DNA of 64,000 nt, taken from sequence record NC_105825.1; one strand, written 5' to 3'. The notes beneath the pieces are model-generated. The model saw only the letters and a list, made by a program, of their open reading frames with translations. It made no database searches and was not told the origin of the DNA. The DNA comes from Escherichia phage ECOP18. Within the stretch, counting starts at the first letter, position 1. Each line of letters begins with the position of its first letter. Both the position numbers and the translations under genes were made by a program. Positions 17,973 through 53,560 of this stretch are shown in pieces.

Positions 17973-18424
17973 TATAAGAACCTTGCGAATCCTGATTTTG
18001 TTTCAGTCTTGACTTGTGTCTTTTCTTGAGGATTCTGTAATTTGTCTTTCTGCTTTTGAACCCATGCTTTCTGTTTATTAGCAGAAAATAATGGAGGTTC
18101 TTTCGTGTAAACCTTATGTAATAGTTGGTGATGGTGCTGGCACAATGTTACCACGTCCCTAACTAACTCATGCTCATATTTCTTGTAGAATGCTTCCCTA
18201 TTTGAAAGGACGATATTCTCATCAGTGAAATCCAGCTGGAGTTCTTTAGCAAATTTTTTTATTAGCTGAGATATAGTATGATAGTGATGAAGTTCTAGGT
18301 CTTCACTACTACCACATATAGCACAGCAACCATCCTTACTATACCTAGATTTTATACCATCTCTCATTATGGAAATGGCATCACGTTTGTACTTAGTATT
18401 AGTGGCCATAATCCTCCAATCCAA
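17972..18424 (-). CDS. HNH homing endonuclease (150 aa)
   Basis: CAICGS...LELHH...LCQHHH motifs. Confidence 0.6.
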   Translation of the reverse strand: MDWRIMATNTKYKRDAISIMRDGIKSRYSKDGCCAICGSSEDLELHHYHTISQLIKKFAKELQLDFTDENIVLSNREAFYKKYEHELVRDVVTLCQHHHQLLHKVYTKEPPLFSANKQKAWVQKQKDKLQNPQEKTQVKTETKSGFARFL

Positions 18425-19073
18425 AGCTACTTAGAAAGATTACTATATCCTCAGGAGCAACATTAAAAAATTCCGTGCTTCCTGTAAAATTAGAAAACCC
18501 ACAGTTTTTATTATAATATTCTCTGTGAACTTCCTTTTCTAAATCTAAAGCAGTCTCTCTATCAGGTAGATGATACATGGTGAACAAGTACAGGTCAGAA
18601 AATCCAGATTCTCTTTTAACTTCATTCAACCGTTTCTCAGGGTATAAGCTTATGCCTACTTTAGTACCGCTAGAGGAGGACATGATATAGAGGAATCCGC
18701 CATTCTCCCACTTAAGAGAACAATAAGGACATCTCTTACCTTGAGTCAATCCATCTAAGGTAATGAAACAGTCATGCCCATTATTGCAGCGTAGATGTAG
18801 TTTTGTTTTAGCATTAGTATAGCTGCTTAACAGAGTATACCCTATATTAGATATTCTGTTACTAACTTCATCTAACGATATTGTATTATTGGAGCAGTGT
18901 GGACAACCTCTCCTCATATGGAGTATAGAATGTGGTGTTGCTTCCCAAACGTGTGCTCTCTGGCATTTAAATACTGTTTTTATACGTTGGTTTACATACT
19001 CACCGACAATTTGGATTCCACGATCAGCTAATCTAATATTTATATCTTTTATTGTTAGCTTTTGTCGACCCAT
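18399..19073 (-). CDS. homing-endonuclease-like protein, Zn-ribbon plus GIY-YIG/T5orf172-type domain (224 aa)
   Basis: CPHC and CPYC motifs followed by GGFLYIM...VGIS...YHL segment. Confidence 0.45.
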   Translation of the reverse strand: MGRQKLTIKDINIRLADRGIQIVGEYVNQRIKTVFKCQRAHVWEATPHSILHMRRGCPHCSNNTISLDEVSNRISNIGYTLLSSYTNAKTKLHLRCNNGHDCFITLDGLTQGKRCPYCSLKWENGGFLYIMSSSSGTKVGISLYPEKRLNEVKRESGFSDLYLFTMYHLPDRETALDLEKEVHREYYNKNCGFSNFTGSTEFFNVAPEDIVIFLSSFGLEDYGH

Positions 19074-19244: not shown

Positions 19245-20561
19245 TTATTTACCACGGGAAATAGAGTAAATTCCATAGCGCAGCGCATCACAGAGGTGAG
19301 AGTTAGCATCATGACGTGGTTTTTCACGTGATAATTTTTCTTCACCTTCTTGGAAGTCCCATTTATAGTTCTGCAACGCATGGATTAATGAGGAACATGA
19401 AGCATCTACAATAATCTTGCCTTGCTGGAATAGCGCTTGCAAGCATGCTAGACCGTCTAGGACAGATTTTTTAGCTGGAGCCGATGCAATTTCATGTTCA
19501 TAAGCTAAGTCCTGACGGAACTGAGCTGCGGCAGAGTCAACAAAAACACGATCAACTTTATAACGATCTATACAGTGCTGGATATACGCAGCATGTTGCG
19601 CTGTAGTTTTCTCCGCCTGCTGGTACTCTTCTAATACATAGTAAGTATCTGTATCATAGTGGTACTTAATAGTAAGAACTGCTGTAGGATCACGATAACC
19701 AACGTCAATACCAAGCAACGTTTCGAATGCTTCATCATCTTTAAAGAAGTGACGCATACCTTTAAGGTCTTTAACATGATCAATAGCATTAAAGGTATCG
19801 AAGATCTGACCTTCGAATACAGAGAAGTCAGCCTCATATTCCTGACGGAAGTAGTTTTTACTAACGGTACGACGTGCTTCTTCGATATCATTCAGATCAG
19901 CACGTGGGTTATCACGATATGTACCATGAATAGATACCCAGTTAGGCAACGTATCATCAAATCCATAGGCATAAAACTCTTTAAACCAGTTACCACCACG
20001 AGGAGTAGAGATAAATAGAGCCTTAGAGTTTGGTTTATCTAGGGTAGGGCGCAACTGAACTCTAAAGGCATCGCCACCAACATCGGAAATTGCCGCCTCA
20101 TCGAAGATGATAAAGTCATATGAACGTCCAACTGCGGAGTCAGCCTGCGCCGCAGAAGCTAGTTTAAACAGTGAGCCGTTTGCCAGCTCAATTTCTTTAT
20201 CTTTAGCATTCTCACGTTCAGTTTGTAGGCCATACTTCTTAATAAGACCACGAATCTGAGACCATCCGATGTTGGCTAGTGAGTAGTTAGGAGCAACTAC
20301 TAGTACCTTTACATTAGGTTCCAGCAATTTTAGGAACCCAAGTGTATATGCTATAAAGGACTTGCCCACACGACGTGATACACACGCCGTTACAAAACGA
20401 TGTCTAGGGTCTTCTAGAGCATTAATAATTGCTATTTGGGGGCCATTAGGTGTAATACCTTCTTGTGCTAGTATTCCTGAAACGGGTAGACGAAAGAAAC
20501 GTTTATCTATTCCGAAATCAATAACATCTACTGTGTTAACGTAGGGTCTTGATACTTCCAT
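19245..20561 (-). CDS. terminase large subunit (438 aa)
   Basis: Walker A-like VSRRVGKS, ATPase then nuclease-like C-terminus with acidic residues. Confidence 0.85.
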   Translation of the reverse strand: MEVSRPYVNTVDVIDFGIDKRFFRLPVSGILAQEGITPNGPQIAIINALEDPRHRFVTACVSRRVGKSFIAYTLGFLKLLEPNVKVLVVAPNYSLANIGWSQIRGLIKKYGLQTERENAKDKEIELANGSLFKLASAAQADSAVGRSYDFIIFDEAAISDVGGDAFRVQLRPTLDKPNSKALFISTPRGGNWFKEFYAYGFDDTLPNWVSIHGTYRDNPRADLNDIEEARRTVSKNYFRQEYEADFSVFEGQIFDTFNAIDHVKDLKGMRHFFKDDEAFETLLGIDVGYRDPTAVLTIKYHYDTDTYYVLEEYQQAEKTTAQHAAYIQHCIDRYKVDRVFVDSAAAQFRQDLAYEHEIASAPAKKSVLDGLACLQALFQQGKIIVDASCSSLIHALQNYKWDFQEGEEKLSREKPRHDANSHLCDALRYGIYSISRGK

Positions 20562-21043
20562 TACTTCTTACCTCCAGTAGCTAGGGAAGTAATTAAGTCC
20601 ATATAGTTTTGATCCCCAGCTCCAGCAATAATATTATTCTGGATATTGGTCTGATTAGCAGGAGCACGGACGGCAGCTTTAGCTTTTTCTAGCTCCACCA
20701 TCATTTTCATCTCTTCCATTTTCATCTTGTGCGCCTTCCAGAGAATATCCATAATATCCTGGTCAGAACCCATGCCGGTTTCTTCTAGTTCTTCTAGTTT
20801 ACGCTTAATAACTTCATCTAGAACACCAAACAAACGATCTCTGTTACGGAATCCACTTTCCATAAAAATATCGTTTAAGTAGTTCTTAACTTCACTACGA
20901 TTCATAATATCTCGGAAAGCAATTTCTGACATTCCAAGGCTACGTGCGGCAGAAGGCACATCGCTACCGCACTGTAAATAAGCTTCAATTACATCCATCC
21001 CTTCAGGGGACATAAGATCTGGTACTAATACATCATTTGCCAT
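20561..21043 (-). CDS. putative terminase small subunit / DNA-binding protein (160 aa)
   Basis: Helix-turn-helix-like [16 protein letters not shown]; directly upstream of large terminase. Confidence 0.4.
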
Positions 21044-21053: not shown

Positions 21054-22811
21054 TTAGGTAAGGCGTTGAACTGTTACTCTTAATCTAGGTAGAAAAACTG
21101 CACTACCTAAACTTACGTGCATAACTACCCCTAACTCTACATTTCCGTTCCCCAGATTTTTAGCAGTGTATATAAAACTATTTCTACTTAGGGCATTGTT
21201 AGGTGTGTATCTAAAAGCAGATGTAGTATGAAAAGGTACTAAATACCCTACTGGTAGTGTTAAAATCTGGTGGAATATCGCATCTCCATTACCATAACTA
21301 TATGCTCTTCTTCCTTGCACTTGAAACACGCCGTTATTCCATGTATTAGCAGGAACACCTGCACAGTTAAGATTACCTGATATAACTTCAGTGGTAAGAA
21401 TTACAGTAGCATTGCCACCCGGTATACCTAGCCCAATAGTTGATAAACCAACGTATCTATCTCCAGTTCCTGGGTAGCTGGGAGTAATATCATCCCCCAT
21501 GTAAGAACTACCAACATTTCCGCTAAAAAGTCGTAGTGGAACTGCTGAAGGCCCCCAAACAACCCCGTGTTCATTACCGATAGTATTATCATTAGAGTTT
21601 ACGTACCATTGCTTACCAGCTCCGAATTTGTAAATACTAATTTGAGACTTAACCCCTCCATAGTCCACAGGAGACCATAAACTCCCGTTACTAGAACCTA
21701 CAAGTTCACACCTTGCGGTGGTATCTCCAAAGGCCCCAGTGTACGCTGCATTATTTCCAACATATTCCATATCTGGTCTATAACCTAAGTTACCAAAAGC
21801 GTTCTGGTTAATAAACTTGTATCCAGTATTGGGAAGACTAACCCCTTTAATTATGAAATTAGAAGGAGATATAAGAATATCTGAACCAGTAAAAGGATTA
21901 CCAGAGATACTCATACCACCATTTGAGTATCTTAAATTCAGAACATACCAAATAACTTTAGTAGGGGTTATGTTATACCAATCCTGTAATATTGTAGCGT
22001 TACCAGATTGGTTAGCTAAATTAGTTGTAGACCCCCTACAAACAAATCTGTTACCTCCATCATGATACATAGTATTTACATTACCAGGAAGACCTTGTCT
22101 TACCCCACCATACCCACGTATGTTAGAGTTACAAACATAAAACCAATCGTGCCCTCTGTGTGCTGATCCTAAAGGAGACATCCATCCTGGGTCCCAGTAA
22201 TATTGGTTATTACCATCTATAGGTACTGTACTACTATTAGTAGGGAATCCTAACTGTGCAAAAGCTTCTGCAACAGTAATACCTACTGGAGCTCCTGCAC
22301 CCGGCCTAACTATATCATGATACGTACTATGTAAGGTAGTACCCCCTGTACCATTCCTAGAAATAGATTCTTCATGCCCTATAGATGGATTATAGTTATA
22401 TGTACCAGATGCCAGGCTATTACCAAATGCAAATCCACTAGTCTGGGAAACACTAGCAAAAGATCTAAAAGGATCTGCTTGAGTGGCAACTATAGTTTGA
22501 CCCACCTTACTCTGAGTACCATTAAGAAAAGCTCTGTGAGTACCATTAATCTCAATAGCAGTTAATATAACTCTACCGGGGTCATTGGATTTAATATTTA
22601 TTATGTCAGAGGGCATCTGACATACAAAAAACCCATTACCGGCATCACCTAACCCAGACTCATAAGTACCATCAACTAGGACAAATGGCATATCACTATG
22701 AAAAATACTATTGGTATTTGGACTATAGTGACGATTAATGTCACCACCAGATTCAGTATTTAAAGATAGTACGGTCTTACCATCGCTATATTTTCCAGCG
22801 AAAAAACCCAT
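21054..22811 (-). CDS. receptor-binding tail protein, pb5/Oad-like by position (585 aa)
   Basis: Gly/Asn/Ser-rich beta-type protein, divergently adjacent to lipoprotein gene as for T5 oad-llp. Confidence 0.55.
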
Positions 22812-22896
22812 ATAATCTCCTATTATAAAAATGTATTTGCTTTCATCTCTCTATTTTGCTATAATATATTCATAAATTAGAAATGGAGAGATAAAT

Positions 22897-23163
22897 ATGA
22901 AAAAGTTTGTGATTACACTAGTTGCCGCAGTTATGTTATCTGGTTGTGCACCTGCTCCCAAACCATTTTGTACTGGATTTGTAAAATCTTTTGGTGGTGC
23001 GGGAGAAGAACATTACGGCCTCAAGGTTCAAAAAGTTCGTATTAAGGGAGATCGATTCCCAGTAGTACAGCTCCGTACTAAGTTTGGGTGGTGGGATCTC
23101 AGTCAGTTTGACCTTAAATATGGTGATTGTAAATTTAAACTAGAGCAATCTAACTACCTGTAA
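22897..23163 (+). CDS. llp: lytic-conversion lipoprotein, Llp-like (88 aa)
   Basis: Signal peptide with lipobox LSGC; divergent from receptor-binding gene. Confidence 0.65.
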   Translation: MKKFVITLVAAVMLSGCAPAPKPFCTGFVKSFGGAGEEHYGLKVQKVRIKGDRFPVVQLRTKFGWWDLSQFDLKYGDCKFKLEQSNYL

Positions 23164-23276
23164 TTAGTATAAAGCAAAAAGACATCTAAGTAAACTAAAT
23201 TTTTTATTTTTTGGACGGTATATTGGCAGAAACCACTATGTAAGAAAAGTAGAAGTCCTTCTAGGAAGTCACGAGC

Positions 23277-23468
23277 ATGGTTGGTTATGCACAAATTATA
23301 AAATATTCCAAATACCAGACTCATAGGAGCATAAAAGATATGTCAAATAAAAGAAAGAACAGACGTGGAGAAGTGTACGAAGCGTGGATTAATATTTACG
23401 GATTTGGTTTTGTATTATTCCTAATCTTCGTAGGTTTTTGGTTAGCAGCTATGGCGGGGTGGATTTAA
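23277..23468 (+). CDS. small membrane protein (likely start at internal Met, ~42 aa)
   Basis: C-terminal hydrophobic helix FGFVLFLIFVGFWLAAMAGWI. Confidence 0.35.
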   Translation: MVGYAQIIKYSKYQTHRSIKDMSNKRKNRRGEVYEAWINIYGFGFVLFLIFVGFWLAAMAGWI

Positions 23469-23623
23469 TGGAATGGGTAATTATTGGCATATTCGTCTTA
23501 TTGATACTTCTCTTTGTAGGCTTACGTGTAATAGATACCTCTGTAACCCAAACAGAAATTAGATTAATGCAGTTGAGTAATAGATTATCTAGAATTGAAA
23601 CTTTATTAGAGGAGCGTAAATAA
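23468..23623 (+). CDS. small membrane protein MEWVII family (51 aa)
   Basis: ATG at 23468; single TM helix; ends ...RIETLLEERK. Confidence 0.4.
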   Translation: MEWVIIGIFVLLILLFVGLRVIDTSVTQTEIRLMQLSNRLSRIETLLEERK

Positions 23624-23730
23624 TGGAATGGGTAATTATTGCACTACTGGGGATTGTGATTATTGGGCAATGTATTCTAGATAATCACTTAGCTAGAATT
23701 GAAACCTTACTATCGGAGAAACGTAAATGA
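23624..23730 (+). CDS. small membrane protein MEWVII family paralog (35 aa)
   Basis: Not in ORF track (<60 aa); MEWVIIALLGIVIIGQCILDNHLARIETLLSEKRK, tandem paralog of preceding gene. Confidence 0.4.
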
Positions 23731-23921
23731 TGGAAGTAGTAGCTACACTAATAGTAATACTAGTCTGGGCAGTTTTCATTATTTCTTACACCGTGTACGT
23801 TCGCCTAAAAACTCTAGAAGCTCAAGTAAAACAACAACAATTTGCGCTAGAAAAATTAGTAGAACTGCAACGTTGTGATAGTACCCGTATTCTGCAAATT
23901 GAGAGGGAATTAGATGTTTAG
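23727..23921 (+). CDS. small membrane protein (64 aa)
   Basis: N-terminal TM helix then charged helix. Confidence 0.4.
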   Translation: MMEVVATLIVILVWAVFIISYTVYVRLKTLEAQVKQQQFALEKLVELQRCDSTRILQIERELDV

Positions 23922-24138
23922 TATTATAGTTGCTTTTATTATCGGGGTAATCGCGGGAGTTTTCGGGACGACTGCGGCTATTAACAAGCATCGTAAATAT
24001 ATTGCGGAAGTATCGCGGGAGATTGCGGAAAGAGAGCGGAAGTTTGACGAGAAACGTGCGGAGTTTGAGCGAGAATGGTCGGATGGATCTCGGGCGTCGC
24101 GGAAGAGATTTCGGGCTAAGGTGAGTGATGAAGAATAA
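23914..24138 (+). CDS. small membrane protein (74 aa)
   Basis: N-terminal TM helix then highly charged tail. Confidence 0.4.
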   Translation: MFSIIVAFIIGVIAGVFGTTAAINKHRKYIAEVSREIAERERKFDEKRAEFEREWSDGSRASRKRFRAKVSDEE

Positions 24139-24664
24139 CTTAAGTATACAGGGCATACAAGAAGCATTTGCTTATGATCCCGAAACCGGAGTTATTACCT
24201 GGAAAAGTGGTAGTCGTAAAGGAAAAGAAGCTGGCACTTTAAATAGAGGATATAGACAGCTTAAGTACAAAGGGTTTAGAGCTTATGCACATCAAATAGC
24301 TTTTGTTATTATGGAGAATAGATGGCCCGAGGAATGCGTTGACCATATTGACAGGAATAAACTAAATAATAGATGGTCAAATCTGCGAGAAGCTACAATT
24401 ACGGAAAATAATCATAATGGTAGAACTTCAAAAACATCCTCGGGCTATCTAAATGTTACGTGGCATAAGGGACTCCATAAATGGATGGTAAGATTACACG
24501 ACAAACATGGACTTATAAAGGGTACTACTGAGTATTTTTCCTACGATAGATTGGAAGATGCAGTAAATTATGCGAATTTACTAAGAAAGAAATTTCATGG
24601 CAGCTTTGCAGTACAAGAGGCATTCAAAGGGAACATACCAGATGTTGTTCAGTTAAACAGTTAA
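24125..24664 (+). CDS. HNH homing endonuclease (179 aa)
   Basis: HQIAF...CVDHIDRNKLNNRWSNLREAT...ENN motif block. Confidence 0.65.
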   Translation: MMKNNLSIQGIQEAFAYDPETGVITWKSGSRKGKEAGTLNRGYRQLKYKGFRAYAHQIAFVIMENRWPEECVDHIDRNKLNNRWSNLREATITENNHNGRTSKTSSGYLNVTWHKGLHKWMVRLHDKHGLIKGTTEYFSYDRLEDAVNYANLLRKKFHGSFAVQEAFKGNIPDVVQLNS

Positions 24665-24785
24665 TTAGCACTAAAATGACTTTTGCCAAATTCTTTGGAT
24701 TACGTACGCGTGGGTGGGTCCACTGCCTCCGGCGAAAATACTTAGTCTGCTAACCGCCACCCCCGTTACTATTACCATGCTAACT

Positions 24786-34730: not shown

Positions 34731-34796
34731 CTTAAATAATAGTGTTTCTCACTTCCGTTCTTAAATACGAATCACTATCATTTGCGTTCCACTTTC

Positions 34797-34815
34797 TAAA
34801 TGAGAATCATTCTGC
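34797..34815. repeat. Fur-box-like palindrome, copy 2
   Basis: taaatgagaatcattctgc. Confidence 0.45.
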
Positions 34816-34901
34816 TTTTTAAAGGAGAATCGTTTCACTTCCTGAATAATTCTCACTTCCATTCTTAAATGCGAATTATTATCATTCTCATTCCGCTTTT
34901 T

Positions 34902-34930
34902 AAATGAGAATCATTCTCATTATCATTCGC
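34902..34930. repeat. Fur-box-like palindrome, copy 3 (perfect 19-bp palindrome AATGAGAATCATTCTCATT)
   Basis: aaatgagaatcattctcattatcattcgc. Confidence 0.5.
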
Positions 34931-34964: not shown

Positions 34965-35632
34965 GTGCAAATCCGACATTGCTCCACGGGTGTTACGTGC
35001 GGGCGTGTATGTGCGAATCCGACAATTTTTGGTAGTGTGCAAATCCGACCCGAAAAATTTTTATAGTGTGCAAATCCGACAATGAATTTTCCTAAAAACT
35101 CCAGCAATCACGAACTGCGTTCGAATCCTGTGGGGTATGTGCAAATCCGACACGGTTTTTCTAGGATTAAGATGTGCGAATCCGACAAGATTTTTGTGAC
35201 TTCGATTGGAGGGTGTGTGATTGTGTGAGTTTGGGGAGAAGTTGAGAGAGCGAGAAAAATTTGAGGGAACTGCGGGAGGGGCGCATGTTTGGTGCGGAGC
35301 ACCTGATTTGCGGGGATTTTGGGGAAGAGTTGAGAAGATTTGGGTTAATTTGAGATTAGTGCAGAAAAAGTAAAATTTTATTAGCTAAATGGAGCAAAAT
35401 AGCTTGACAAGTGAAAATTCTTGTGGCTCTAAAAACTCAGGCAATCATGGGCCTTCGGCCCGAAATAATGCTGCCATTTTCAGGAGATTATGTGTCCATG
35501 AAAACTCAGGCAATCATGGGCCTTCGGCCCGAAATAATGCTGCCATTTTCAGGAGATTATGTGTCCATGAAAACTTAGGCAATTGTGCAAATCCGACCAG
35601 TTTTTAAACTTATGTCAGTGTGCAAATCCGAC
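34965..35632 (+). repeat. dispersed direct-repeat family GTGC(A/G)AATCCGAC(A/C), eight copies
   Basis: Copies at 34965, 35011, 35037, 35068, 35139, 35174, 35585, 35619; each followed by a T/A-rich tract; spacing irregular. Confidence 0.7.
35432..35569 (+). repeat. perfect tandem duplication, 2 x 69 bp, each unit with GGGCC-TTCG-GCCC hairpin
   Basis: Unit aaaactcaggcaatcatgggccttcggcccgaaataatgctgccattttcaggagattatgtgtccatg repeated head to tail. Confidence 0.8.
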
Positions 35633-41598: not shown

Positions 41599-41888
41599 TT
41601 TTTCTTTAATTGCTTGACTTCACGCTCAAAGCTAGCTGCTCGGCGTTCTGCCACTGCTTGATGCTCCTTAGCAAAGCGTGCCTCTTGTTTTGCTAAGTTA
41701 AAGGCCATAGCGTTCTTGTTAAGAGAATCGTACATCTTCTTCATCGCCGGAATAGACATTTTCATCAGTTGCCCCTCAAATCCTTGCATGTCGAGAAGAA
41801 TTGCTAATACATTGGCCATTTCAGTCTTGGTAAGGTTAGAGGCGTCGAAGTCTTTAGTCATGTTTTCCATTAGAATTTCCTCTCTCAT
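41592..41888 (-). CDS. hypothetical protein (98 aa)
   Basis: ORF track. Confidence 0.4.
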   Translation of the reverse strand: MREEILMENMTKDFDASNLTKTEMANVLAILLDMQGFEGQLMKMSIPAMKKMYDSLNKNAMAFNLAKQEARFAKEHQAVAERRAASFEREVKQLKKKC

Positions 41889-41902
41889 TAATTTATGAAC
41901 TT

Positions 41903-41931
41903 ATTATACAGAATTTTAAGGCTTAAAGCAA
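41903..41931 (-). promoter_or_regulatory. early sigma70-type promoter (-35 TTGCTT, 17-bp spacer, -10 TATAAT)
   Basis: Read on minus strand; A/T-rich upstream tract; conserved downstream box. Confidence 0.6.
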
Positions 41932-41948
41932 CTGAATTTTTTAATTAC

Positions 41949-42380
41949 TTACCAATCGTTAACAACGCCGGAGAACTCAGAAGCAAAAACTTTTTCAAAT
42001 TTCTCTGCAATTTCAGGATGATCTTTGCAGATCAGCTCAATACAGGCTTCTGGAGTCATTCCTTCATCTTCAGGATCACCGTAATACTTGTCCCAAAGAT
42101 CATCAGGGATGATGTGCTCTGCCAAATCTTGGAAAGAGATTAGCTGATAACGTTCTGCTTCCTCAGGGAGGAGGATTTCACAAAGATCTTTATCTATGTC
42201 ACTACGGTAATCAGCAATTAGCAGGGCATTGCAAGCATGACACTCCCAAACCATCAAGCGCTCAGAAATAGGATTAGACTTATCCTGAACGTAGGACTGA
42301 AACAGGGTTCGGAAAGTAGCTTTAACTTGTTCAAACTTATCTGCTGCTGCAAAAACTAGAGCTTTATCAACTTTGTTCAT
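41949..42380 (-). CDS. hypothetical acidic protein (143 aa)
   Basis: ORF track. Confidence 0.4.
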   Translation of the reverse strand: MNKVDKALVFAAADKFEQVKATFRTLFQSYVQDKSNPISERLMVWECHACNALLIADYRSDIDKDLCEILLPEEAERYQLISFQDLAEHIIPDDLWDKYYGDPEDEGMTPEACIELICKDHPEIAEKFEKVFASEFSGVVNDW

Positions 42381-42539
42381 TTTTATTCCTTCTCATCAAT
42401 TTATAAAGTAATTATACAGAAACTTAGGCATTTTAGCAAATAAAACTTTTAATTAAAATGCCTAGTCCTGTGCCAATAGCAATACAAATGATTATAAGTA
42501 TTGCTACTGTTTGTATTACTCGTTTAATAATACCCATGA

Positions 42540-43061
42540 TTAGACATTTAACATCCAACTAGTTTTATCATGAGAAGTATATGTACCACTCATTATGTCT
42601 TCCAGCCGTACTGGTGATTTTGCATACTCAACGCAAACGTTAATATAACGAGGGTCTCCCATTAACTCAAAGTGAGTATGCCCGTGTAAGTTCTTCTTGC
42701 CCCTTAACTCTTCTGGATGTACTGGAGCATGGGAAAGCCAAAAGTTTTTATACTTAACTAGGGATTGTACATTATCTACTACTCCTACTAAGTCTTTGAA
42801 AGATAATCCTTCTCGCTCTAAGTCGTGGTTCCCCAAAACTAATGTAGTTCTAACATTGCTAAAGAGTTTTTCGAACTTCTCCAAACCATTTCTAGATACA
42901 AATGCATCTCCTAAAATATAAAATACTGTACGCTTATCTTTCATGGATGTAATAGTATCCATAATAAATTCATCATGCTCTTCCATAGTAGAGAAGATTG
43001 GTCTGAATTTAGTAATATTTGCATGTCCTAAGTGGAGATCACTCCAAAAGCAAACTTTCAT
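42540..43061 (-). CDS. calcineurin-like metallophosphoesterase (173 aa)
   Basis: DLHLGH and GNHD motifs. Confidence 0.5.
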   Translation of the reverse strand: MKVCFWSDLHLGHANITKFRPIFSTMEEHDEFIMDTITSMKDKRTVFYILGDAFVSRNGLEKFEKLFSNVRTTLVLGNHDLEREGLSFKDLVGVVDNVQSLVKYKNFWLSHAPVHPEELRGKKNLHGHTHFELMGDPRYINVCVEYAKSPVRLEDIMSGTYTSHDKTSWMLNV

Positions 43062-43936
43062 TAAAGAATCCTCTGTATGCCACAGCTATCTTCTCGAAGC
43101 GTGGTAAATGTTGTGATTTTCCCCGTTTCATCATTAACTTGCGCAACTGTCAACTGCCCGTTGAAAACACCGCCAGTATCAAGATAAACACGATTCTGGT
43201 ATAAAATAGGGTAAGGTACTCCAGTATGCCCGTGAAACACAAAGTCTACCCCACTAACTGGAGGTACTTCTATCCTGTATTTTTCTTTAAATCCTGCATA
43301 ACGCTGGAAATACGAGTGTTCCTCACCCTTTTTGGACAAATGGAAGCCTATTTCTTGGATTACATCTCGATCCCATAAGTATGGTTCAACATGGTATCCA
43401 GGATGGTCGTGTGGGTCTTCCTTAGCTGCTTCTACTTGTGCAATAAGATTATCCCATACTGGGGTTTCTACTTCATTACCACATTCTTTGTACGTAAAAG
43501 GTACACCACCATGAACAACACCAAACTTCTTACCACGATGTCTAACAGTTAGGAATACTGGCATTTTTTCAGCCATATCTTCGGCAATATTTTTAATGGT
43601 ATCCTCGTCTAGCTCATTCATAGCCCACATACCGCCATTATACATCCAGTTAGCCCAATCTCCTACAATCATAAATTGGTCATGATTACCACGAACGCTA
43701 CAGAAACGTGGATTATATAGGAATTTGGCTAGAACTTGTAGGTTCTGCGTGCCCCGATCAATTAAATCCCCCACGCATACAACGCAATCTTTCTTGCCGT
43801 TATAGCCAGCTAACTGTAGTGCATCTTCTAGTAAATCGTTGCATCCATGAATATCACCAACAAAGAATAAGTTAACATCATCAGGTACTACTAGTGTTTT
43901 ATGCACATTAAATTCTTTTTTCATAATTATTCCCAA
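43061..43936 (-). CDS. Ser/Thr protein phosphatase-like, PPP family (291 aa)
   Basis: GDIHG, GDLIDRG and GNHD motifs. Confidence 0.6.
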   Translation of the reverse strand: MGIIMKKEFNVHKTLVVPDDVNLFFVGDIHGCNDLLEDALQLAGYNGKKDCVVCVGDLIDRGTQNLQVLAKFLYNPRFCSVRGNHDQFMIVGDWANWMYNGGMWAMNELDEDTIKNIAEDMAEKMPVFLTVRHRGKKFGVVHGGVPFTYKECGNEVETPVWDNLIAQVEAAKEDPHDHPGYHVEPYLWDRDVIQEIGFHLSKKGEEHSYFQRYAGFKEKYRIEVPPVSGVDFVFHGHTGVPYPILYQNRVYLDTGGVFNGQLTVAQVNDETGKITTFTTLREDSCGIQRIL

Positions 43937-44172
43937 ATAACATTTAAAATAGTTGTACCATAATTATTTGATAGTTTTAGAGTATAACCATCTTTATAGA
44001 GGGCTTTTATAGCTTCATAACTAATTTCATCACGATTAAATTGTATAAAAGAACCCCCAGCCTCTACAGAAGCTAGAATCCGTCTTTTAACGTATCTATA
44101 CGGCTTCTTTCTGCTCTTGAGAAGAGCAGCTCTATTAACTCTAGCTAAACGTTTTGCTTGCTCTGCTAACAT
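43927..44172 (-). CDS. hypothetical protein (81 aa)
   Basis: ORF track. Confidence 0.4.
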   Translation of the reverse strand: MLAEQAKRLARVNRAALLKSRKKPYRYVKRRILASVEAGGSFIQFNRDEISYEAIKALYKDGYTLKLSNNYGTTILNVIWE

Positions 44173-44269
44173 TTAATCCTCCTATCAATCTATATAAATA
44201 TTATACCAAAATTTTTAGCAAAAAGCAAGTAAAATAAAAGCCTGATCAGCTAAGATCATGCTTTGTTTA

Positions 44270-44560
44270 TTAGTCCTCTGGATTATCATCCAGGAAATTT
44301 TTAATAGCTTCGTGCATAGTTTCTTTACGAAGCTGACGTCCAATCAGAATATGATTAGCTTCTACTCGACCATTAGGTAAGCGATCCGCCAGAACTACTA
44401 CAGGAACTTGGCGTACTCCAAATTTCTGCATTAATTCTGTATTATCAGTCTCTTTATGGACTTCCAAATTATATTCATTGACTACTTTATCAAATACTGG
44501 CTCAAACATTTTGCAAGGATTGCAAGTAGAACCTTTCAATAGATATACTAATTTACTCAT
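44270..44560 (-). CDS. glutaredoxin/thioredoxin-like protein (96 aa)
   Basis: CNPC active-site-like motif near N-terminus. Confidence 0.4.
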   Translation of the reverse strand: MSKLVYLLKGSTCNPCKMFEPVFDKVVNEYNLEVHKETDNTELMQKFGVRQVPVVVLADRLPNGRVEANHILIGRQLRKETMHEAIKNFLDDNPED

Positions 44561-44984
44561 AGTTATTAATGGCCTCTAAGAAGTTTTTCATAGTTTTTAC
44601 GGTTGCGGTGCTCAGATCAAGACTTACACCCAAACACTCGGTTAGTGCTTCCTGATAAGGAGCCTTTAATCTGCCTTCTGGGACTTCTACCTTCTTATAT
44701 TCTTTATTTTTGACCTTTTTAATCATAGTCTCTAGTACAAGAAGCGGTAATTTAGCACCTTCAATATCAGTACCCAAAAGTTCAGTTAAAATTTTATTAA
44801 GATCAAGACGAGTTAACTTTTTGCCCTTAGACATAGATGCACCTACCTTTGTATCAATAGATTTTTCCGCTTTCTTTTCGAGCTTTTTGTACTCAGGAGA
44901 GTCATGATTACGGAGTGCAATGTTTAGCTCGTAATGTGGTATACGAAAATGTTCCGCCATTTGAGTATAGAAACGATCAGACAT
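44553..44984 (-). CDS. hypothetical protein (143 aa)
   Basis: ORF track. Confidence 0.4.
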   Translation of the reverse strand: MSDRFYTQMAEHFRIPHYELNIALRNHDSPEYKKLEKKAEKSIDTKVGASMSKGKKLTRLDLNKILTELLGTDIEGAKLPLLVLETMIKKVKNKEYKKVEVPEGRLKAPYQEALTECLGVSLDLSTATVKTMKNFLEAINNYE

Positions 44985-45059
44985 AATATATACCTCTCTT
45001 AACTAATTTATGTATATATTATATAATAACTAGGGCTAAAAGTCAACTACTTTTTTATC

Positions 45060-45476
45060 TTAATTTACTGCATGTATAAATCTTTTCCTAACTAGATACA
45101 TAGTTATTGGGTAAATTGAGTACATAAGTATCGGGGAGAAAAGGGTGAAATACGCTGTAACTCCCCCAGCTAACATCAAAGGTATTAATGCTAGAGTAAG
45201 GGCCATAAGAATCATACCGAATGAAACAGCCAAAGCTATGGATATAGGATTCTCTAGTTCCATCCATAACCAACAATATTTCGTATCTCTATGGCAATTG
45301 CATTTACAAACGCCGAATGAACCCATAATTATATACTCTAGTCCGTGAATAACCTTTATTAATAAGCTATTTCGGGTAGTTAATGCAATGATAGTAAAGA
45401 CTATCATTAAAACGAATACTACTAGACTTATTTTCCAGATACCTAGCAGCATCATAGTGAATAGTTCTGCAAACAT
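45060..45476 (-). CDS. membrane protein (138 aa)
   Basis: Multiple hydrophobic helices. Confidence 0.4.
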   Translation of the reverse strand: MFAELFTMMLLGIWKISLVVFVLMIVFTIIALTTRNSLLIKVIHGLEYIIMGSFGVCKCNCHRDTKYCWLWMELENPISIALAVSFGMILMALTLALIPLMLAGGVTAYFTLFSPILMYSIYPITMYLVRKRFIHAVN

Positions 45477-45553
45477 GGCTTTCTCCTATCTTCAAAAATT
45501 ATTAAAGCCCCCTTTGCCTAAAAAGGCGGGAATATTCCCGCCTCAGTTATTAA

Positions 45554-45967
45554 TTAAACTAGTTCGACATGACCGCCATCATAGGTACCACGTTTTATTT
45601 CATCGTGATAATCTCCTGAAGCATTCCAATCGGCACCAAAACGAAGTTTAATGCCTAGTTCTTTACCAGCTTGTTCAAAAGCCTTTTTAACTGCCCAAAA
45701 TGCTTCTAGGTCATTCCAATCAATCTTGCCATTAATGTATGGAGCAAAATCAAGAGCATCTCCAGTAATATGCTTGCTTTTACTAGGATCTTTTAAAAAT
45801 GAAGTACCATTAGCAATATTCTGGGCACTTTGTGCTACTGTACGAATACCCTGTACGATCGTGAAATCATATGGAGATAATTCTAAAGCTCTACGAGCTA
45901 CTTTTTGTAGCTCTGGCTTAACGGTAGCTAATTGTTTTTCGCTATTTTTACCAAATTTAAAACTCAT
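45554..45967 (-). CDS. endolysin, M15-type L-alanyl-D-glutamate peptidase-like (137 aa)
   Basis: His/Asp metal-ligand pattern (H...D...H) and size as T5 endolysin (from memory). Confidence 0.55.
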   Translation of the reverse strand: MSFKFGKNSEKQLATVKPELQKVARRALELSPYDFTIVQGIRTVAQSAQNIANGTSFLKDPSKSKHITGDALDFAPYINGKIDWNDLEAFWAVKKAFEQAGKELGIKLRFGADWNASGDYHDEIKRGTYDGGHVELV

Positions 45968-46620
45968 ATTGATCTACCTAAAGATCTCTGTTGTGGGGAA
46001 CAGAGCTTTGTTAAATACTCGTTAAATTTCTCAGAATCGGCTGCATCTACAGGATTATCTTTCCAAGCAATACCAATATATCCAGCATAGATATTGTTTA
46101 GATTGAAATACGGACAAGTGTATATGTAATTAAAAGTAACGTTCTTAAACGCAGGTATATTTAACCCCATGTATTTATTTACTTTTACACTTAAATCCGA
46201 CGCGTAGTTAAAGCCGTCTAAGTGACGTCTATATAGCTCAGACGTCTTATTTACCGCTTTATCGGCCAAGTCAGCCCTATCTAATTGCGCATTGCTTTCC
46301 CATGCAATAATGTTAGAATAATCATTAATGGCATCGGGTTTATACTTGACTACAAAAACAGCATCCGCACCCGTTTGGGAAAAAAGCACCATGCTCTTTT
46401 CTCTAGCTACGTTAGGAAAATTACTTATCCTTTGAGTTTGAACATCCTGTAGAACCGCAGACGTGGAGAAAGTCTTTAAGAATGACATCACCTCACTAGT
46501 ATTACTAACAAATAAGAAAATAATGACAGCAACTAAGATAGTTAGCAGACGTTTAAGAAGCGATGCTGGATCTTTCGCTTCTTGGAGCAGTACCGTTAAT
46601 AATTGTAAGAACTTTTCCAA
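45964..46620 (-). CDS. holin-like membrane protein (218 aa)
   Basis: Directly upstream of endolysin; N-terminal TM helix. Confidence 0.45.
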   Translation of the reverse strand: MEKFLQLLTVLLQEAKDPASLLKRLLTILVAVIIFLFVSNTSEVMSFLKTFSTSAVLQDVQTQRISNFPNVAREKSMVLFSQTGADAVFVVKYKPDAINDYSNIIAWESNAQLDRADLADKAVNKTSELYRRHLDGFNYASDLSVKVNKYMGLNIPAFKNVTFNYIYTCPYFNLNNIYAGYIGIAWKDNPVDAADSEKFNEYLTKLCSPQQRSLGRSI

Positions 46621-46732
46621 TTGTAACCTCCTCTAACCAGTACCATTATACTAATTTTGGAGGAAAATTACAATGTGTTTTTAAAGATTTTCTTTGGAGC
46701 ACAAAATTTTGTCGTTGTCAAGAAGAATTTTA

Positions 46733-46766
46733 GATAAAAGAAAAGCCAGGGTCGTTAAACCCTGGC
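46733..46766 (-). terminator. rho-independent terminator
   Basis: agccaggg...ccctggct hairpin followed by U-run on minus strand. Confidence 0.5.
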
Positions 46767-46776
46767 TTAAAACTAC

Positions 46777-47376
46777 TTACTCTTCTTTATGCTCCTCTGA
46801 TTGAGGTAACTGGGCTTTATTATACTGCTCAGATCGATATTTTGCCAAGATTTCAATACGCTTATGGATTTCTTTGCTATCTAGATAGATATTTTTGTTG
46901 TATTTTACCATCTCGTCGATTTCGTCTATTGAGAAGAACGGATAGTAGACATCTAGCATCATATCTTCTACTAACTTGTTGTAAGATTCATAGGCTTTCT
47001 TGATTTCTTGACCCTTCTCACAGAATCCGCCAGAGAACGTGTGTCCCATTAGCGTAGCATGTGGATGTACTACCCATCCATGACAGGATAGGAAAATTGT
47101 ACAGTAAGCAGAAGCACTAGGACCAACCAGATGCCCTATAACTGTTCCACGGCAATTAGCAATTAAGTTAGATAACTGTGCAGCAGTATCAACATAACCA
47201 CCTGGGCCATTAATCATCAGATTAATTTCGTCGTCCTCATTTGCCTGCATAAGTACCATTGATAAATCACGGTATTCATCCGGCGGGCCTAATTCTTCAT
47301 CAAAGAAAAAGGTATACTCATTAGATTGGCGAATGGAGTGAAACAGGTTAGTCTTTTCTTCTTTTTTATTAGTCAT
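46777..47376 (-). CDS. ClpP-like serine protease (199 aa)
   Basis: Weak resemblance to Clp protease fold (GPGG, Ser/His context). Confidence 0.35.
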   Translation of the reverse strand: MTNKKEEKTNLFHSIRQSNEYTFFFDEELGPPDEYRDLSMVLMQANEDDEINLMINGPGGYVDTAAQLSNLIANCRGTVIGHLVGPSASAYCTIFLSCHGWVVHPHATLMGHTFSGGFCEKGQEIKKAYESYNKLVEDMMLDVYYPFFSIDEIDEMVKYNKNIYLDSKEIHKRIEILAKYRSEQYNKAQLPQSEEHKEE

Positions 47377-47388
47377 AGCGATCCTTGA

Positions 47389-48141
47389 TTATCCAACTAG
47401 TGGTTCTAGCTCTAAGTCACAGAAGTTATAAACTTCTAGTTTAAGGTTATTGATACCATCGAATTTATTAACTAATTCGTGAGTAATATATTTTGCAGGA
47501 ATACCACTTTCAGATGGATGATCTGATTTAATAGTGAACTTCTGCTCAGCGGGTACTACATTTACTATCAAAGAATCCATATCTAAATGGTTTGTTTCTC
47601 TGAGTAACTCTCCTTCATTGGGGAATCTAACATCTGTTATTACGGCGACATCTGGGTCGTCTTTAAAGATGGATTGCTCCAGAATTATGAGCCAAATGCG
47701 TTCATGCACCAGCTGCCTTCCTAGCTCTGTCCCTACGAGCTGTAACATTTTTCTCGGAGAAATAAATAAACTATAAAGTCCGTCTTCTTTATTCTCTGAG
47801 ATAAGTTGTTGAGGATTAAGATATTTTTCCTCAAAAATAGGCCAAACGTACGAGAAGTCTTCAAACTTATCGATACCGTACTTAAACCACACATCTCTGG
47901 CTCGCTCCAATTGAGATTGTGTGACCGTAAACCATTGGTCAATCTCTTTTCCTCTGCGCTCTCCTAGAAACTCTGGAGTTACACCGAGGATTACGGATGC
48001 AAGTTCATAAACAGGCTTAGCAAAACTATAACGACGGGATAAACACGTTGGATACGTGTCATTACACCAATCGATAATTAATTTTGCAACGGTATCTTTT
48101 CCCGAACCAGCTTCACCATGTAAACCAACTAATACTGACAT
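47389..48141 (-). CDS. deoxynucleoside monophosphate kinase-like P-loop protein (250 aa)
   Basis: Walker A GEAGSGKDT. Confidence 0.5.
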   Translation of the reverse strand: MSVLVGLHGEAGSGKDTVAKLIIDWCNDTYPTCLSRRYSFAKPVYELASVILGVTPEFLGERRGKEIDQWFTVTQSQLERARDVWFKYGIDKFEDFSYVWPIFEEKYLNPQQLISENKEDGLYSLFISPRKMLQLVGTELGRQLVHERIWLIILEQSIFKDDPDVAVITDVRFPNEGELLRETNHLDMDSLIVNVVPAEQKFTIKSDHPSESGIPAKYITHELVNKFDGINNLKLEVYNFCDLELEPLVG

Positions 48142-48494
48142 TAATCTTTCCTATTGTTAATTGGTGGATAGTAAACTAAGCAACGTTTTTCTTGTAAATC
48201 TTGGCGATAGAAGCAAACCATACCAGTCAGTCGTGAGATATATGAATATTCTGCCTCGCGGCATTTTGCCAACATATTCCAATCTTTATATGGTACAACA
48301 ACTACTACGCCATCTTCGCCATTTGTAGCTAATTTCTTTTCGAATTTGAAATCAAAGCTACAAGGCTGAAGTCCTTTAGGCCAGTCTACATGAGCTTGCT
48401 TTAACTCATGAGATGACTCTGGTTTTATTTCTTCTGCACAGCCTGTGATTGTGATTGCGGCTGCGAGCAGTATTCCAAGTTTCCAGTTAAACAC
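48141..48494 (-). CDS. outer-membrane lipoprotein, o-spanin candidate (117 aa)
   Basis: Signal peptide with lipobox ITGC; overlaps i-spanin candidate. Confidence 0.4.
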   Translation of the reverse strand: MFNWKLGILLAAAITITGCAEEIKPESSHELKQAHVDWPKGLQPCSFDFKFEKKLATNGEDGVVVVVPYKDWNMLAKCREAEYSYISRLTGMVCFYRQDLQEKRCLVYYPPINNRKD

Positions 48495-48874
48495 GCTAAT
48501 CTTTCCTCGAACTCTTTACTCTGCTTTTTAGCAATTAATGTTACCAATCCAGGCTTTGCAGCTATAATATCTTGGCGACTAAGAGCTTTATCTAACTGCT
48601 TAATCTTTTTGTCTAGATCTGCTTGCGAAATATTATTCATTGTGAAATACTGATTCATTCTAGTCTCACGAAGTTCACTTTCAGCTTTCACCTTATTAAG
48701 GGAAGCCTCTAGAGAAGAAATCTTTTTAGTAGCTACCGCAAGATCTCCCGCTAAAGTCTCCACTTTATCTACTAAGTGATAAGCACCGAATCCGATGCCT
48801 ATCGCTAGACCTGCTCCCAGGATATACCACTTACCGTGCCATATTCCTGAAAGAAGTTTTTGTATCAAATCCAT
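48425..48874 (-). CDS. i-spanin candidate (149 aa)
   Basis: N-terminal TM helix followed by coiled coil. Confidence 0.4.
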   Translation of the reverse strand: MDLIQKLLSGIWHGKWYILGAGLAIGIGFGAYHLVDKVETLAGDLAVATKKISSLEASLNKVKAESELRETRMNQYFTMNNISQADLDKKIKQLDKALSRQDIIAAKPGLVTLIAKKQSKEFEERLACLTGNLEYCSQPQSQSQAVQKK

Positions 48875-49529
48875 GCGCTGCTAACCTGTCTTTATCTGAT
48901 ACTTTAATCATATCAGGCTCACCAGTTCCTAGTACACCGAAGATATACTGTTCGAGAACTTGGTGTAAACGGTATAAGTTACTTTCAATTTCCTGCCACG
49001 GAATACCGGACTGATGGAAACGAATGTTAGTCTGAATTACGAAGTTACGAACATCATCGTTATCGTTCTTCTTAATACCTTTCACATATGCAATTGGTAC
49101 ACGCAGTTCGGATAAGATGCGTTCTGCTTTAGGTTTTGCTTCAGCGAGCAAATCACGCATTGTTTCACGAACATCTCCGAGACTCTTATCCATTAAGTAA
49201 GAGCGAGCATGTAATCCCATCTCTTCCATTTTATCGAACATAGAGTCGAGGTTGAACGTTTTGAAGCTAAATGCTGGATGCCAGCAGTATAGCTCGTGTA
49301 ACCAGTAAACTTCACCTGCAACAAATAGTGGGTTTACAAAATATTCGAAATCACCACGGAAAGATAGCGAACCATCACGAAATACCTGGCGACTATGCAC
49401 GATGTTCTTTTCTGCATCATCAGTTACTTTAACCAGTAACTCTTCAGTTTTACGCTCCCAAACACGATCTGGGTCGAACAAACTGTTCTGCAAATCATAC
49501 ACATCGGCGAACTTAGAAATAATCCTCAT
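48831..49529 (-). CDS. hypothetical protein (232 aa)
   Basis: ORF track. Confidence 0.45.
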   Translation of the reverse strand: MRIISKFADVYDLQNSLFDPDRVWERKTEELLVKVTDDAEKNIVHSRQVFRDGSLSFRGDFEYFVNPLFVAGEVYWLHELYCWHPAFSFKTFNLDSMFDKMEEMGLHARSYLMDKSLGDVRETMRDLLAEAKPKAERILSELRVPIAYVKGIKKNDNDDVRNFVIQTNIRFHQSGIPWQEIESNLYRLHQVLEQYIFGVLGTGEPDMIKVSDKDRLAAHGFDTKTSFRNMAR

Positions 49530-49560
49530 ATTTAATCCTCTTGCCTCAATCTATAAACAT

Positions 49561-49589
49561 ATTATACAAAAGTTTGGGCATCTAAGCAA
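49561..49589 (-). promoter_or_regulatory. early sigma70-type promoter (-35 TTGCTT, 17 bp, -10 TATAAT)
   Basis: Read on minus strand. Confidence 0.6.
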
Positions 49590-49683
49590 CTAAAATTTTA
49601 TTATAAAAATAGCCCAGTCGCAAAAGTGCAGGCTGGGCTTTGTCATTATTTGCTTTTGCTAGTAAGCTGACTTAGTGTCAATC

Positions 49684-50064
49684 TTATGTAATATTAGTTT
49701 TTCTAGCTTTGTGCAGTACCCCTGCATTTCTCCATAACTTAATATCATCTACTGTTTCTTTATAAGGAGCTATGGTAAAACCTAGTGGGCCAGCACTAAA
49801 TAATCCTAAGAATCCTATTGCACGCATATAGAATAAGCATTCTTCGCCTGTCATTCCTTCAACTGCTTTTCTTTGTTTTTCGTTTTCAAACTCGTGCTCC
49901 TTGTTGTCTATACGAAGGTGTTTAATGAACCATTCAGCAGAATATTCATCTAAGTGTCTAAGTATAGCTACTGCATACCCAGCGCCGATTAAAAACCAAG
50001 TGGTAACAAGAATTAGTACTATAGTCATATAATCTCCAGTTAAGGTCAGCGACCAACTCACCAC
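49684..50064 (-). CDS. membrane protein (126 aa)
   Basis: Hydrophobic helices. Confidence 0.4.
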   Translation of the reverse strand: MVSWSLTLTGDYMTIVLILVTTWFLIGAGYAVAILRHLDEYSAEWFIKHLRIDNKEHEFENEKQRKAVEGMTGEECLFYMRAIGFLGLFSAGPLGFTIAPYKETVDDIKLWRNAGVLHKARKTNIT

Positions 50065-50138
50065 TTACCGCACTAAGGGGCACGACTCCCTTATCCGTAA
50101 CAGTTGCAGGTGACGCAACTCGGTCCTACGCGAGTTCT

Positions 50139-50423
50139 TTAGGTATTCTGCATTTCAGCTTTAAATTTTTTCATATTACGAGTCTTTCTATAAAAGAAAA
50201 ACACATATGTTGGGCCTAGAAGAATATCCACAATAAATATCATAGATCTAGCACATCTGAGTAATGTTTTATCATCAAGAGGAGGCAGATCTAACGGTCG
50301 AGTTTTATGTATAACGTATAATATTACATCTTTATTCTTAGAAATATACAGATCATCAACCAAGCTGTAAATAGCTACTATAGACCCAATGACGAACCAA
50401 AGAGCAAATGGAGAAATAATCAT
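50139..50423 (-). CDS. membrane protein (94 aa)
   Basis: Hydrophobic helices. Confidence 0.4.
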   Translation of the reverse strand: MIISPFALWFVIGSIVAIYSLVDDLYISKNKDVILYVIHKTRPLDLPPLDDKTLLRCARSMIFIVDILLGPTYVFFFYRKTRNMKKFKAEMQNT

Positions 50424-50716
50424 TTCAGATCCTTTTCATTAATTAGAATATTAGTAAACAGTGGAGTAACCCCTAGACTCATAGTAGGTCCAAACGTATT
50501 CATGGCTACCCACAATTGCATAGTGATCATCCCATCTTTAATCTCCGGATCTTTATATTCTTCGATACGTTTTTTGGCAAAGGCAACTACATCTGGAATA
50601 CTACCGTTCTTTACAACATGATCATGCCAAAACTGAGCGTTTTCACTTCGTAGGAATGTTAAAACATCCTTAGTTGCTGGAATCTGCACTGTGCTATTGA
50701 TGTTTAGTCTTTTCAC
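50420..50716 (-). CDS. hypothetical protein (98 aa)
   Basis: ORF track. Confidence 0.4.
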   Translation of the reverse strand: MKRLNINSTVQIPATKDVLTFLRSENAQFWHDHVVKNGSIPDVVAFAKKRIEEYKDPEIKDGMITMQLWVAMNTFGPTMSLGVTPLFTNILINEKDLK

Positions 50717-51113
50717 GTTCTTCTCTCCGACGTTTAGATTCTTTCATCATATGAGCTGCTACAACTTCGTGGTAGTAGTCATTAATGTTATCTTCTGGCA
50801 AGAAATGCTTAATAGTCTCTAGCTGACAAATAACTCGATGAAGATGGCTATTTGGTAGACATAATTTCATCCCCGCAACAAATCCAGAGAAGCCTGGAAC
50901 ACTGAACATAGGTTGGGCTTCTACTCTACCTTCAGAGTTGATATTAAGCTCAATTGAGATACCCATTTTCATGCTGTAAAGCTGGCAGTACTCCCCATTA
51001 CCAGACCTTGACCAAATAGTGAAGTCCTCATCAATTTGATCTTGGATTTCTGTAATTGCAAATTTAATTCTAGGGTCTAAATTATTCATCTTCACCTTCA
51101 AAGTCGCAATCAT
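50694..51113 (-). CDS. hypothetical protein (139 aa)
   Basis: ORF track. Confidence 0.4.
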   Translation of the reverse strand: MIATLKVKMNNLDPRIKFAITEIQDQIDEDFTIWSRSGNGEYCQLYSMKMGISIELNINSEGRVEAQPMFSVPGFSGFVAGMKLCLPNSHLHRVICQLETIKHFLPEDNINDYYHEVVAAHMMKESKRRREEREKTKHQ

Positions 51114-51655: not shown

Positions 51656-51683
51656 TTCAAACCTCTCTCATCAATTTATAAAC

Positions 51684-53559: not shown

Positions 53560-53560
53560 A

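Follow-up and report, generated by a model that had tools for sequence, protein, structure and literature searches.

The stretch from 21,054 to 24,138 in a 64,000-nucleotide window of Escherichia phage ECOP18 (NC_105825.1) is very probably the standard host-recognition end of a Tequintavirus, with a receptor-binding protein (RBP) and lipoprotein gene (llp) of the BF23/Hrs allele type and a run of small backbone open reading frames (ORFs) downstream. The window is the whole 64-kb stretch of DNA that was analysed, and all coordinates are positions in it. More than 400 T5-like phage records match the 3.6-kb region with conserved gene order, the best nucleotide (nt) matches over 3 kb being Salmonella phage SP01 (98.7%) and Escherichia phage DaisyDussoix/Bas31 (96%), both members of Tequintavirus. 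The RBP gene lies next to the gene for the terminase small subunit, and llp is on the opposite strand to it, in divergent orientation (ORF map). This layout, with a small divergent lipoprotein gene beside the RBP, is common to T5, BF23, DaisyDussoix, SP01, Stitch and phiR2-01, and the RBP gene is invariably upstream of terminase in T5-like phages (PMC8594841).

The RBP gene (21054–22811, minus strand) encodes a protein of 585 amino acids (aa) that matches phrog_4815 from residue 1 to 585 (E 5e-274, PHROG profile search) and the solved pb5 chains 8b14_B and 8a8c_B in PDB (E 1e-50). Full-length identity is 99.8% to the SP01 protein, 97.6% to that of DaisyDussoix, 73.7% to DT571/2, 71.5% to SPC35, 67% to BF23 Hrs (over 100% of length), 55% to phiR2-01 and 30% to the 640-aa T5 pb5 (again over 100% of length). 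Identity to the T5, S131 and Klebsiella-phage types does not exceed 31%, and the identity table across records contains no value between 31% and 55%. By its sequence the protein is a pb5-family RBP with a non-FhuA allele, and it falls in the BtuB (Hrs) cluster, apart from the FhuA and FepA types. Maffei et al. defined three RBP clusters that predict use of BtuB, FepA or FhuA (PMC8594841), and BtuB dependence has been shown by experiment for BF23 (PMC10644984), DT57C/DT571-2 (PMC4728585) and phiR2-01 (PMC8624392). Compared with the characterised Hrs proteins, the ECOP18 RBP is a mosaic in which the N-terminal 90 residues and residues 271–420 are conserved and residues ~150–270 are the most diverged.

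The divergent gene (22897–23163, plus strand) encodes an 88-aa lipoprotein, Llp, with a signal peptide and the lipobox LSGC17 (Pfam LPAM_1, 23.7 bits against a cut-off of 20, residues 1–18) and a full-length match to phrog_1119 (E 2e-26). It is 98.9% identical to BF23 Llp over 88 aa, with a ratio of non-synonymous to synonymous polymorphism (pN/pS) of 0.04. The Llp sequences of 400 records fall into two groups, one at least 94% identical to it and the other, the Epseptimavirus type, about 68% identical, and Llp stays near-invariant even beside RBPs of merely 67–74% identity. The same combination of a diverged Hrs and an almost invariant BF23-type Llp was described by Golomidova et al. (2016; PMC4728585), who found that the Llp of DT57C, differing at a single residue from that of BF23, lowered plating of DT57C and BF23 more than 100-fold and left T5 unaffected. 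This match to a near-identical protein that has been tested is the strongest argument for the receptor: since the ECOP18 Llp is 98.9% identical to BF23 Llp, a one-residue variant of which excludes BF23-type phages and not T5, the receptor is almost certainly the vitamin B12 transporter BtuB. The lipoprotein is predicted to be the receptor-blocking partner of the RBP, exclusion having been shown by experiment for its near-identical counterpart (PMC4728585).

Part of this had been anticipated by a first-pass annotation of the window, made from the letters and an ORF list. Every ORF that it had placed in the region is present in the ORF listing. Its 585-aa protein is indeed next to terminase and shorter than T5 pb5, and the alignment to pb5 and Hrs that it proposed gave full-length homology to the receptor-binding family. 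The different receptor that it suspected is borne out at the level of a non-FhuA allele (67% identity to BF23 Hrs against 30% to T5 pb5), and the lipobox protein that it took for the receptor-blocking partner scores above the LPAM_1 cut-off and is nearly identical to BF23 Llp. Its description of that protein as Llp-like holds for function and for the broad PHROG family; it does not hold for homology to T5 Llp, where the detectable similarity appears to be limited to the signal peptide and the first cysteine. The alignment to T5 Llp (BLASTP E 4e-4, 28% over 67 aa) consists in large part of signal peptide, and hhalign gives 79% probability over 27 columns only.

The ECOP18 Llp appears closer to the Cor-type lipoproteins of T1-like phages than to T5 Llp. 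In the T1-like phage grams (Drexlerviridae), a lipoprotein annotated as Cor aligns with it from end to end in hhalign at 97.7% probability. T5 Llp, the 88-aa Llp and Cor are grouped in phrog_1119, which T5 Llp also matches over its full length. C17, C25 and C78 are invariant across the 88-aa Llp, T5 Llp and Cor proteins, consistent with the shared intramolecular disulphide described in PMC9586334. Like the Cor-type proteins of T1-like and lambdoid phages (phrog_1119), the ECOP18 Llp is a small lipoprotein with two further conserved cysteines; unlike classical Cor, which blocks FhuA, it is paired with a BtuB-type RBP, and at 15.6 bits it is below the cut-off of 31 of the NCBIfam equivalog model for lambdoid Cor (lamb_exclu_cor). 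A phmmer search of Llp against PDB gave no match. An AlphaFold2 (AF2) model of Llp is a small beta-barrel with a predicted local distance difference test score (pLDDT) of 82.8; AF2 models of free Llp have been reported to be inaccurate (PMC9586334). The top fold match of the model in BFVD is the receptor-blocking protein of phiR2-01 (template modelling score 0.80), and the second is a protein of phage CEC_Kaz_2018 named ‘super-infection exclusion protein’.

The 85-nt spacer between the two divergent genes contains a T5-early-type sigma-70 promoter reading towards llp (22837–22866, plus strand), made up of TTGCTT, a 17-nt gap and TATAAT and flanked by an A-rich element upstream and the box ATAAATT downstream. 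A search of the window for TTGCT-N17-19-TATAATA gave 12 matches, where 0.09 were expected. Eleven of them, with conserved flanks, are interspersed with 20 tRNA genes (53240–60979) in the early/tRNA region (41875–61601, minus strand); the twelfth, the llp promoter, is the sole T5-early-type promoter in the first 41 kb. A generic promoter and terminator scan gave hits at background level and missed it, because TTGCTT matches TTGACA at just three of six positions; the T5-specific pattern search found it. Early expression of Llp has reportedly been published, which agrees with a promoter of this type. In the 176-nt spacer between llp and the first small ORF (23164–23339, plus strand) no terminator-like site, structured RNA or Rfam match was detected, and the RNA fold z-score is −0.04. 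With a single early-type promoter at llp and no terminator before the small ORFs, we infer that the simplest reading, and a likely one, is a single early operon running from llp to the gene for the 74-aa protein and possibly taking in the HNH gene beyond it.

Taken together, these features suggest the following course of events. The RBP, a single-copy tail-tip protein, would by homology bind the TonB-dependent BtuB and trigger DNA ejection. Soon after infection the strong early-type promoter would drive synthesis of the lipoprotein, which may then jam BtuB from the periplasmic side, by analogy with T5 Llp and FhuA, for which a crystal structure of the complex provides the template (PMC9586334). 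With BtuB blocked, later phages using the same receptor would be unable to adsorb, and progeny would not be wasted on cell debris. The small ORFs, probably co-transcribed with llp, would add an early, laboratory-dispensable operon of inner-membrane peptides.

Comparison with T5 separates the two parts of the region. Nucleotide homology to the T5 locus ends at 21091 and restarts at 23304 (blastn), 36 nt before the start codon of the first small ORF. Because it is missing just over 21092–23303, the unit exchangeable with respect to T5 comprises the RBP gene, llp and 140 nt of downstream spacer, and the small ORFs, to judge from the same comparison, are conserved backbone genes outside the exchanged module. 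Five of them, rather than the four counted in the first-pass annotation, run on the plus strand up to 24138, each with one strongly hydrophobic 17-residue segment (Kyte–Doolittle 2.5–3.15). From one gene to the next, stop and start codons overlap or directly adjoin, and Shine–Dalgarno motifs lie within the 3′ end of the preceding gene. In order, they encode a C-terminally anchored membrane peptide of 42 aa (23340–23468; orthologue of T5.159), peptides of 51 aa (23468–23623) and 35 aa (23623–23730; orthologue of T5.160) with an N-terminal transmembrane (TM) segment, a 64-aa protein with an N-terminal TM segment and a helical tail (23727–23921; orthologue of T5.161) and a 74-aa protein with an N-terminal TM segment and a highly charged helix (23914–24138; orthologue of T5.162).

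All of the small ORFs have pN/pS below 1. The 42-aa peptide (phrog_8596, E 2e-30), whose ATG has AGGAG 9 nt upstream, is 78.6% identical to its counterparts in T5 and BF23 (pN/pS 0.15–0.36); a 63-aa reading of this ORF, from 23277, was rejected, since conservation with T5 and the PHROG profile, which covers residues 22–63 of the longer ORF, both begin at the 42-aa start. The 35-aa peptide (phrog_6369, E 3.8e-26) is 94% identical to T5 and 97% to BF23 (pN/pS 0.04–0.13), the 64-aa protein (phrog_5851, E 2e-34) is 87.5% identical to T5 and 40–43% to Epseptimavirus homologues (pN/pS 0.30–0.67), and the 74-aa protein (phrog_6447, E 8e-44) is 97% identical to T5 over residues 1–67 only. An exhaustive HMMER search of 1.84 billion proteins returned five cluster representatives for the 74-aa protein, all from close T5-like relatives, so no function can be transferred to it; against LapA_dom it scored 23.9 bits, below the cut-off of 28. 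The T5 counterparts, T5p155–158 or T5.159–T5.162, stand in the same order between llp and the right terminal repeat with 88–92% nt identity, and the 42-, 35-, 64- and 74-aa proteins are similarly conserved in BF23. Homologues of the 42-, 64- and 74-aa proteins are also found, partly unannotated, in the Epseptimavirus phages Stitch and phiR2-01, and a homologue of the 35-aa peptide, among the Epseptimavirus phages compared, in Stitch only; in Sugarland and Slocum, which are more distant, none of the small ORFs was detected. The unannotated 42-aa homologues (80% identity) lie at 2807–2926 in phiR2-01 and among 3192–3311/3100–3189 in Stitch, and the 35-aa homologue in Stitch is 83% identical.

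Searches of Pfam, NCBIfam, PADLOC and PHROG placed none of the small ORFs in a functional family, and sub-threshold TM-plus-helix matches (LapA, ZapG, FtsL, GspM, SecE) were set aside as artefacts of composition and topology. No lipobox or signal peptide that would put the products at the outer membrane was found in them. In a CRISPRi-ART knock-down screen of T5, T5.159–T5.162 and llp were all scored ‘Not Fit’, that is, dispensable in single-phage laboratory infection, and the PHROG numbers listed there for T5.159–T5.162 are those found for the ORFs of the window (PMC11879866 supplement). In the literature searched, T5.159–T5.162 appear in those supplementary tables only, with no main-text mention (PMC11879866). 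The names given to their homologues in GenBank are contradictory and wrong (‘receptor binding protein’, ‘receptor blocking protein’, ‘tail fiber protein’, ‘tail assembly protein’), as seen in the records of LmqsSP1, MET_P1_100_107, PS3-1 and SP01.

The 51-aa gene is a tandem duplicate of the T5.160-type gene. Its product matches phrog_6369 (E 8.9e-17), the family of the 35-aa peptide, and the two genes share an identical first 18 nt and a near-identical 3′ motif; by these signs the two peptides are true paralogues, as the first-pass annotation had proposed from their common MEWVII...RIETLL pattern. The conserved ends of the 51-aa gene fall where the signals for translational coupling to its neighbours lie. 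The gene was found in 34 phage records (RefSeq duplicates counted), where it accompanies three Hrs alleles, namely the window type in PK7, the DT57C type in LmqsSP1 and MET_P1_100_107 and a BF23-like allele in HildyBeyeler. It is absent from T5, BF23, DT571/2 and FGS017, although FGS017 has an RBP of the window type. Its copies show pN/pS of 0.07–0.57 with all replacements conservative, which points to a maintained gene. The position is variable, since in Salmonella phage PS3-1 (429–1590) the 51-/35-aa pair is replaced by two different TM peptides, one of 41 aa and one of 48 aa that ends in RLSRIETLLEKYK. PS3-1 also carries an HNH endonuclease between llp and the T5.159 homologue, which is shortened to 34 aa, and has its T5.162 homologue broken into two ORFs.

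Several observations weigh against parts of this picture. The central third of the RBP, residues ~150–270, is just 33–60% identical to BF23 Hrs, and the literature searched gave no receptor experiment for exactly this allele, so that use of BtuB rests on membership of the cluster and on the near-identical Llp. Plug-jamming is carried over by analogy, because past the signal peptide the ECOP18 Llp is only weakly homologous to T5 Llp, and a Foldseek search of the AF2 Llp model against PDB gave nothing at E ≤0.001 (best E 0.3). The GenBank record of BF23 predicts an extra promoter in the spacer between llp and the 42-aa gene. The divergence of the central region could mean that BtuB is not the receptor of this RBP, the identity of residues 151–270 to DT571/2 being 57–77%. 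We consider this very improbable: the cognate lipoprotein is all but the same as the BtuB-blocking Llp of BF23, DT57C kept its use of BtuB in experiments despite a diverged Hrs beside a conserved Llp (PMC4728585), and RBPs more than 55% identical to this one all fall in the published BtuB cluster (PMC8594841).

Several roles can be considered for the small peptides. The first-pass annotation had suggested that they could extend the superinfection-exclusion function, and on a receptor-specific reading they would act with Llp on the same receptor. They adjoin llp in the same orientation, probably in one early operon, and like llp are dispensable in the laboratory, yet they lie outside the block that is exchanged with the receptor allele, are 79–97% identical in the FhuA-using T5 and the BtuB-using BF23, and have nothing in their sequences to take them to the outer membrane. 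With the presence of the 51-aa paralogue also uncoupled from the RBP allele, the idea is hardly credible. That some of the ORFs, the 51- and 35-aa ones above all, are not real genes is less credible still: their small size, and annotations that in some GenBank records disagree or are absent, could point that way, but pN/pS of 0.04–0.57 with conservative replacements, Shine–Dalgarno motifs with coupled stop/start overlaps, conservation between genera and PHROG profile matches all speak for genes. Proteins of lysis or lysis timing (holin, antiholin or spanin-like) would fit single-pass membrane proteins with coiled-coil-like tails encoded beside an outer-membrane lipoprotein gene, and the weak LapA, ZapG and FtsL-type matches. 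This is improbable, however, as the T5 holin T5.041, which was scored ‘Fit’, and endolysin T5.040 are encoded elsewhere in the early region, an i-spanin would need longer tails than the 16–50 aa seen here, the PHROG and Pfam searches brought up no lysis family and the promoter is early, not late. The evidence leans slightly towards an accessory role that is independent of the receptor and exerted at the inner membrane; as a tentative guess, the peptides may, for example, stop the DNA of related phages from crossing the cytoplasmic membrane. A fuller version, in which the peptides form a receptor-independent second exclusion layer or take over the envelope at the inner membrane, whether by keeping out related phage DNA or by disturbing a shared inner-membrane machine, and the 51-/35-aa position is a diversifying hot spot, is unlikely on present evidence. 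It would account for conservation across Tequintavirus and Epseptimavirus whatever the receptor, for strong purifying selection on the 35- and 74-aa proteins that are nonetheless, like llp, ‘Not Fit’ in single-phage infection, for the early promoter context and for a slot in which the duplicate comes and goes and PS3-1 has another pair. Against it, no homology to known exclusion or defence proteins was found in Pfam, NCBIfam, PADLOC or PHROG functions, the 74-aa family is confined to T5-like phages and the literature searched contains no experimental hint.

The wider setting agrees with the genome plan of a T5-like phage. To the left, the gene for the terminase small subunit (20561–21043, minus strand) directly adjoins the RBP gene and is itself the neighbour of the gene for the large subunit (19245–20561, ORF listing). 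Beyond the 3′ end of the latter, a 224-aa ORF with Cys-rich motifs (18399–19073, minus strand) looks like another endonuclease insertion, and the SP01 annotation has an ‘endonuclease’ at the equivalent place. To the right of the small ORFs come dmp and A1, pre-early genes of the terminal repeat, and then the cluster of 20 tRNA genes; the window therefore begins in the late region, crosses the terminal repeat, which is present once, and ends in the early region. The repeat_region annotations of T5 and BF23, mapped onto the window, put the boundary of the repeat at ~24716–24717.

Just outside this boundary (~24717), and outside the module, lies an HNH homing endonuclease gene (24125–24664, plus strand; Pfam HNH_3, E 6e-12). 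The insertion that carries it (24114–24712) takes the place of the 14 C-terminal codons of the T5.162-type protein, leaving 74 aa instead of 81; T5, BF23 and DaisyDussoix are without it, and FGS017 has it at 93% nt identity. SP01 has a different HNH gene at the same position, and HildyBeyeler has a homing endonuclease gene just downstream of an intact 81-aa gene. Two pairs of direct repeats, one of 68-nt units 104 nt apart (34746–34917, 87% identity) and one of 69-nt units in tandem (35422–35559, 94% identity), lie ~10 kb to the right of the terminal-repeat boundary and may mark the inner end of the repeat or the injection-stop region of T5-like phages.

Little of the RBP/llp module is new. 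The hrs-llp module of coliphage BF23 (genome OR083247) was reportedly described by Mondigler and colleagues in 1996 and 2006. The module was known from BF23 work of 1996–2006 and was revisited in 2016–2023, and near-identical loci are found in many GenBank records. BF23 has the same order and orientation beside terminase and the same four small ORFs before the right terminal repeat; ECOP18 differs from it in having another Hrs allele (585 versus 595 aa, with the central third strongly diverged), the extra 51-aa paralogue and the HNH insertion. With DT57C and DT571/2 it shares the pairing of a diverged Hrs with an almost invariant BF23-type Llp (PMC4728585), whereas its own RBP is a third Hrs allele, common to SP01, DaisyDussoix, LVR16A and others, and DT571/2 is without the 51-aa paralogue. 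T5, with oad (pb5) and llp followed by T5.159–T5.162, has the same architecture, a homologous RBP, small ORFs 79–97% identical and an early promoter of the same kind; it differs in binding FhuA, in having a marginally similar Llp of 77 aa and in lacking the 51-aa paralogue.

The small ORFs are likewise known hypothetical genes of T5, and the only undescribed detail is the tandem duplicate, a minor, lineage-specific variation. We regard it as quite unlikely that the operon of four or five tiny inner-membrane proteins, conserved throughout Markadamsvirinae whatever their TonB-dependent receptor, is an undescribed form of receptor-independent protection, blocking DNA entry or acting on the TonB–ExbBD machinery shared by FhuA, BtuB and FepA; were this so, the duplicated and variable 51-/35-aa slot would be evolving under conflict between phages. 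The locus has little importance beyond correct annotation, for which the wrong public names of the small ORFs are flagged here. As the host-recognition end of a BF23/Hrs-type Tequintavirus, it makes use of BtuB and immunity of infected cells to BF23-type phages predictable with high confidence, which is useful for the design of phage cocktails. The role of the conserved T5.159–T5.162 peptides is a question for the whole T5 group, and one better asked in T5 itself.

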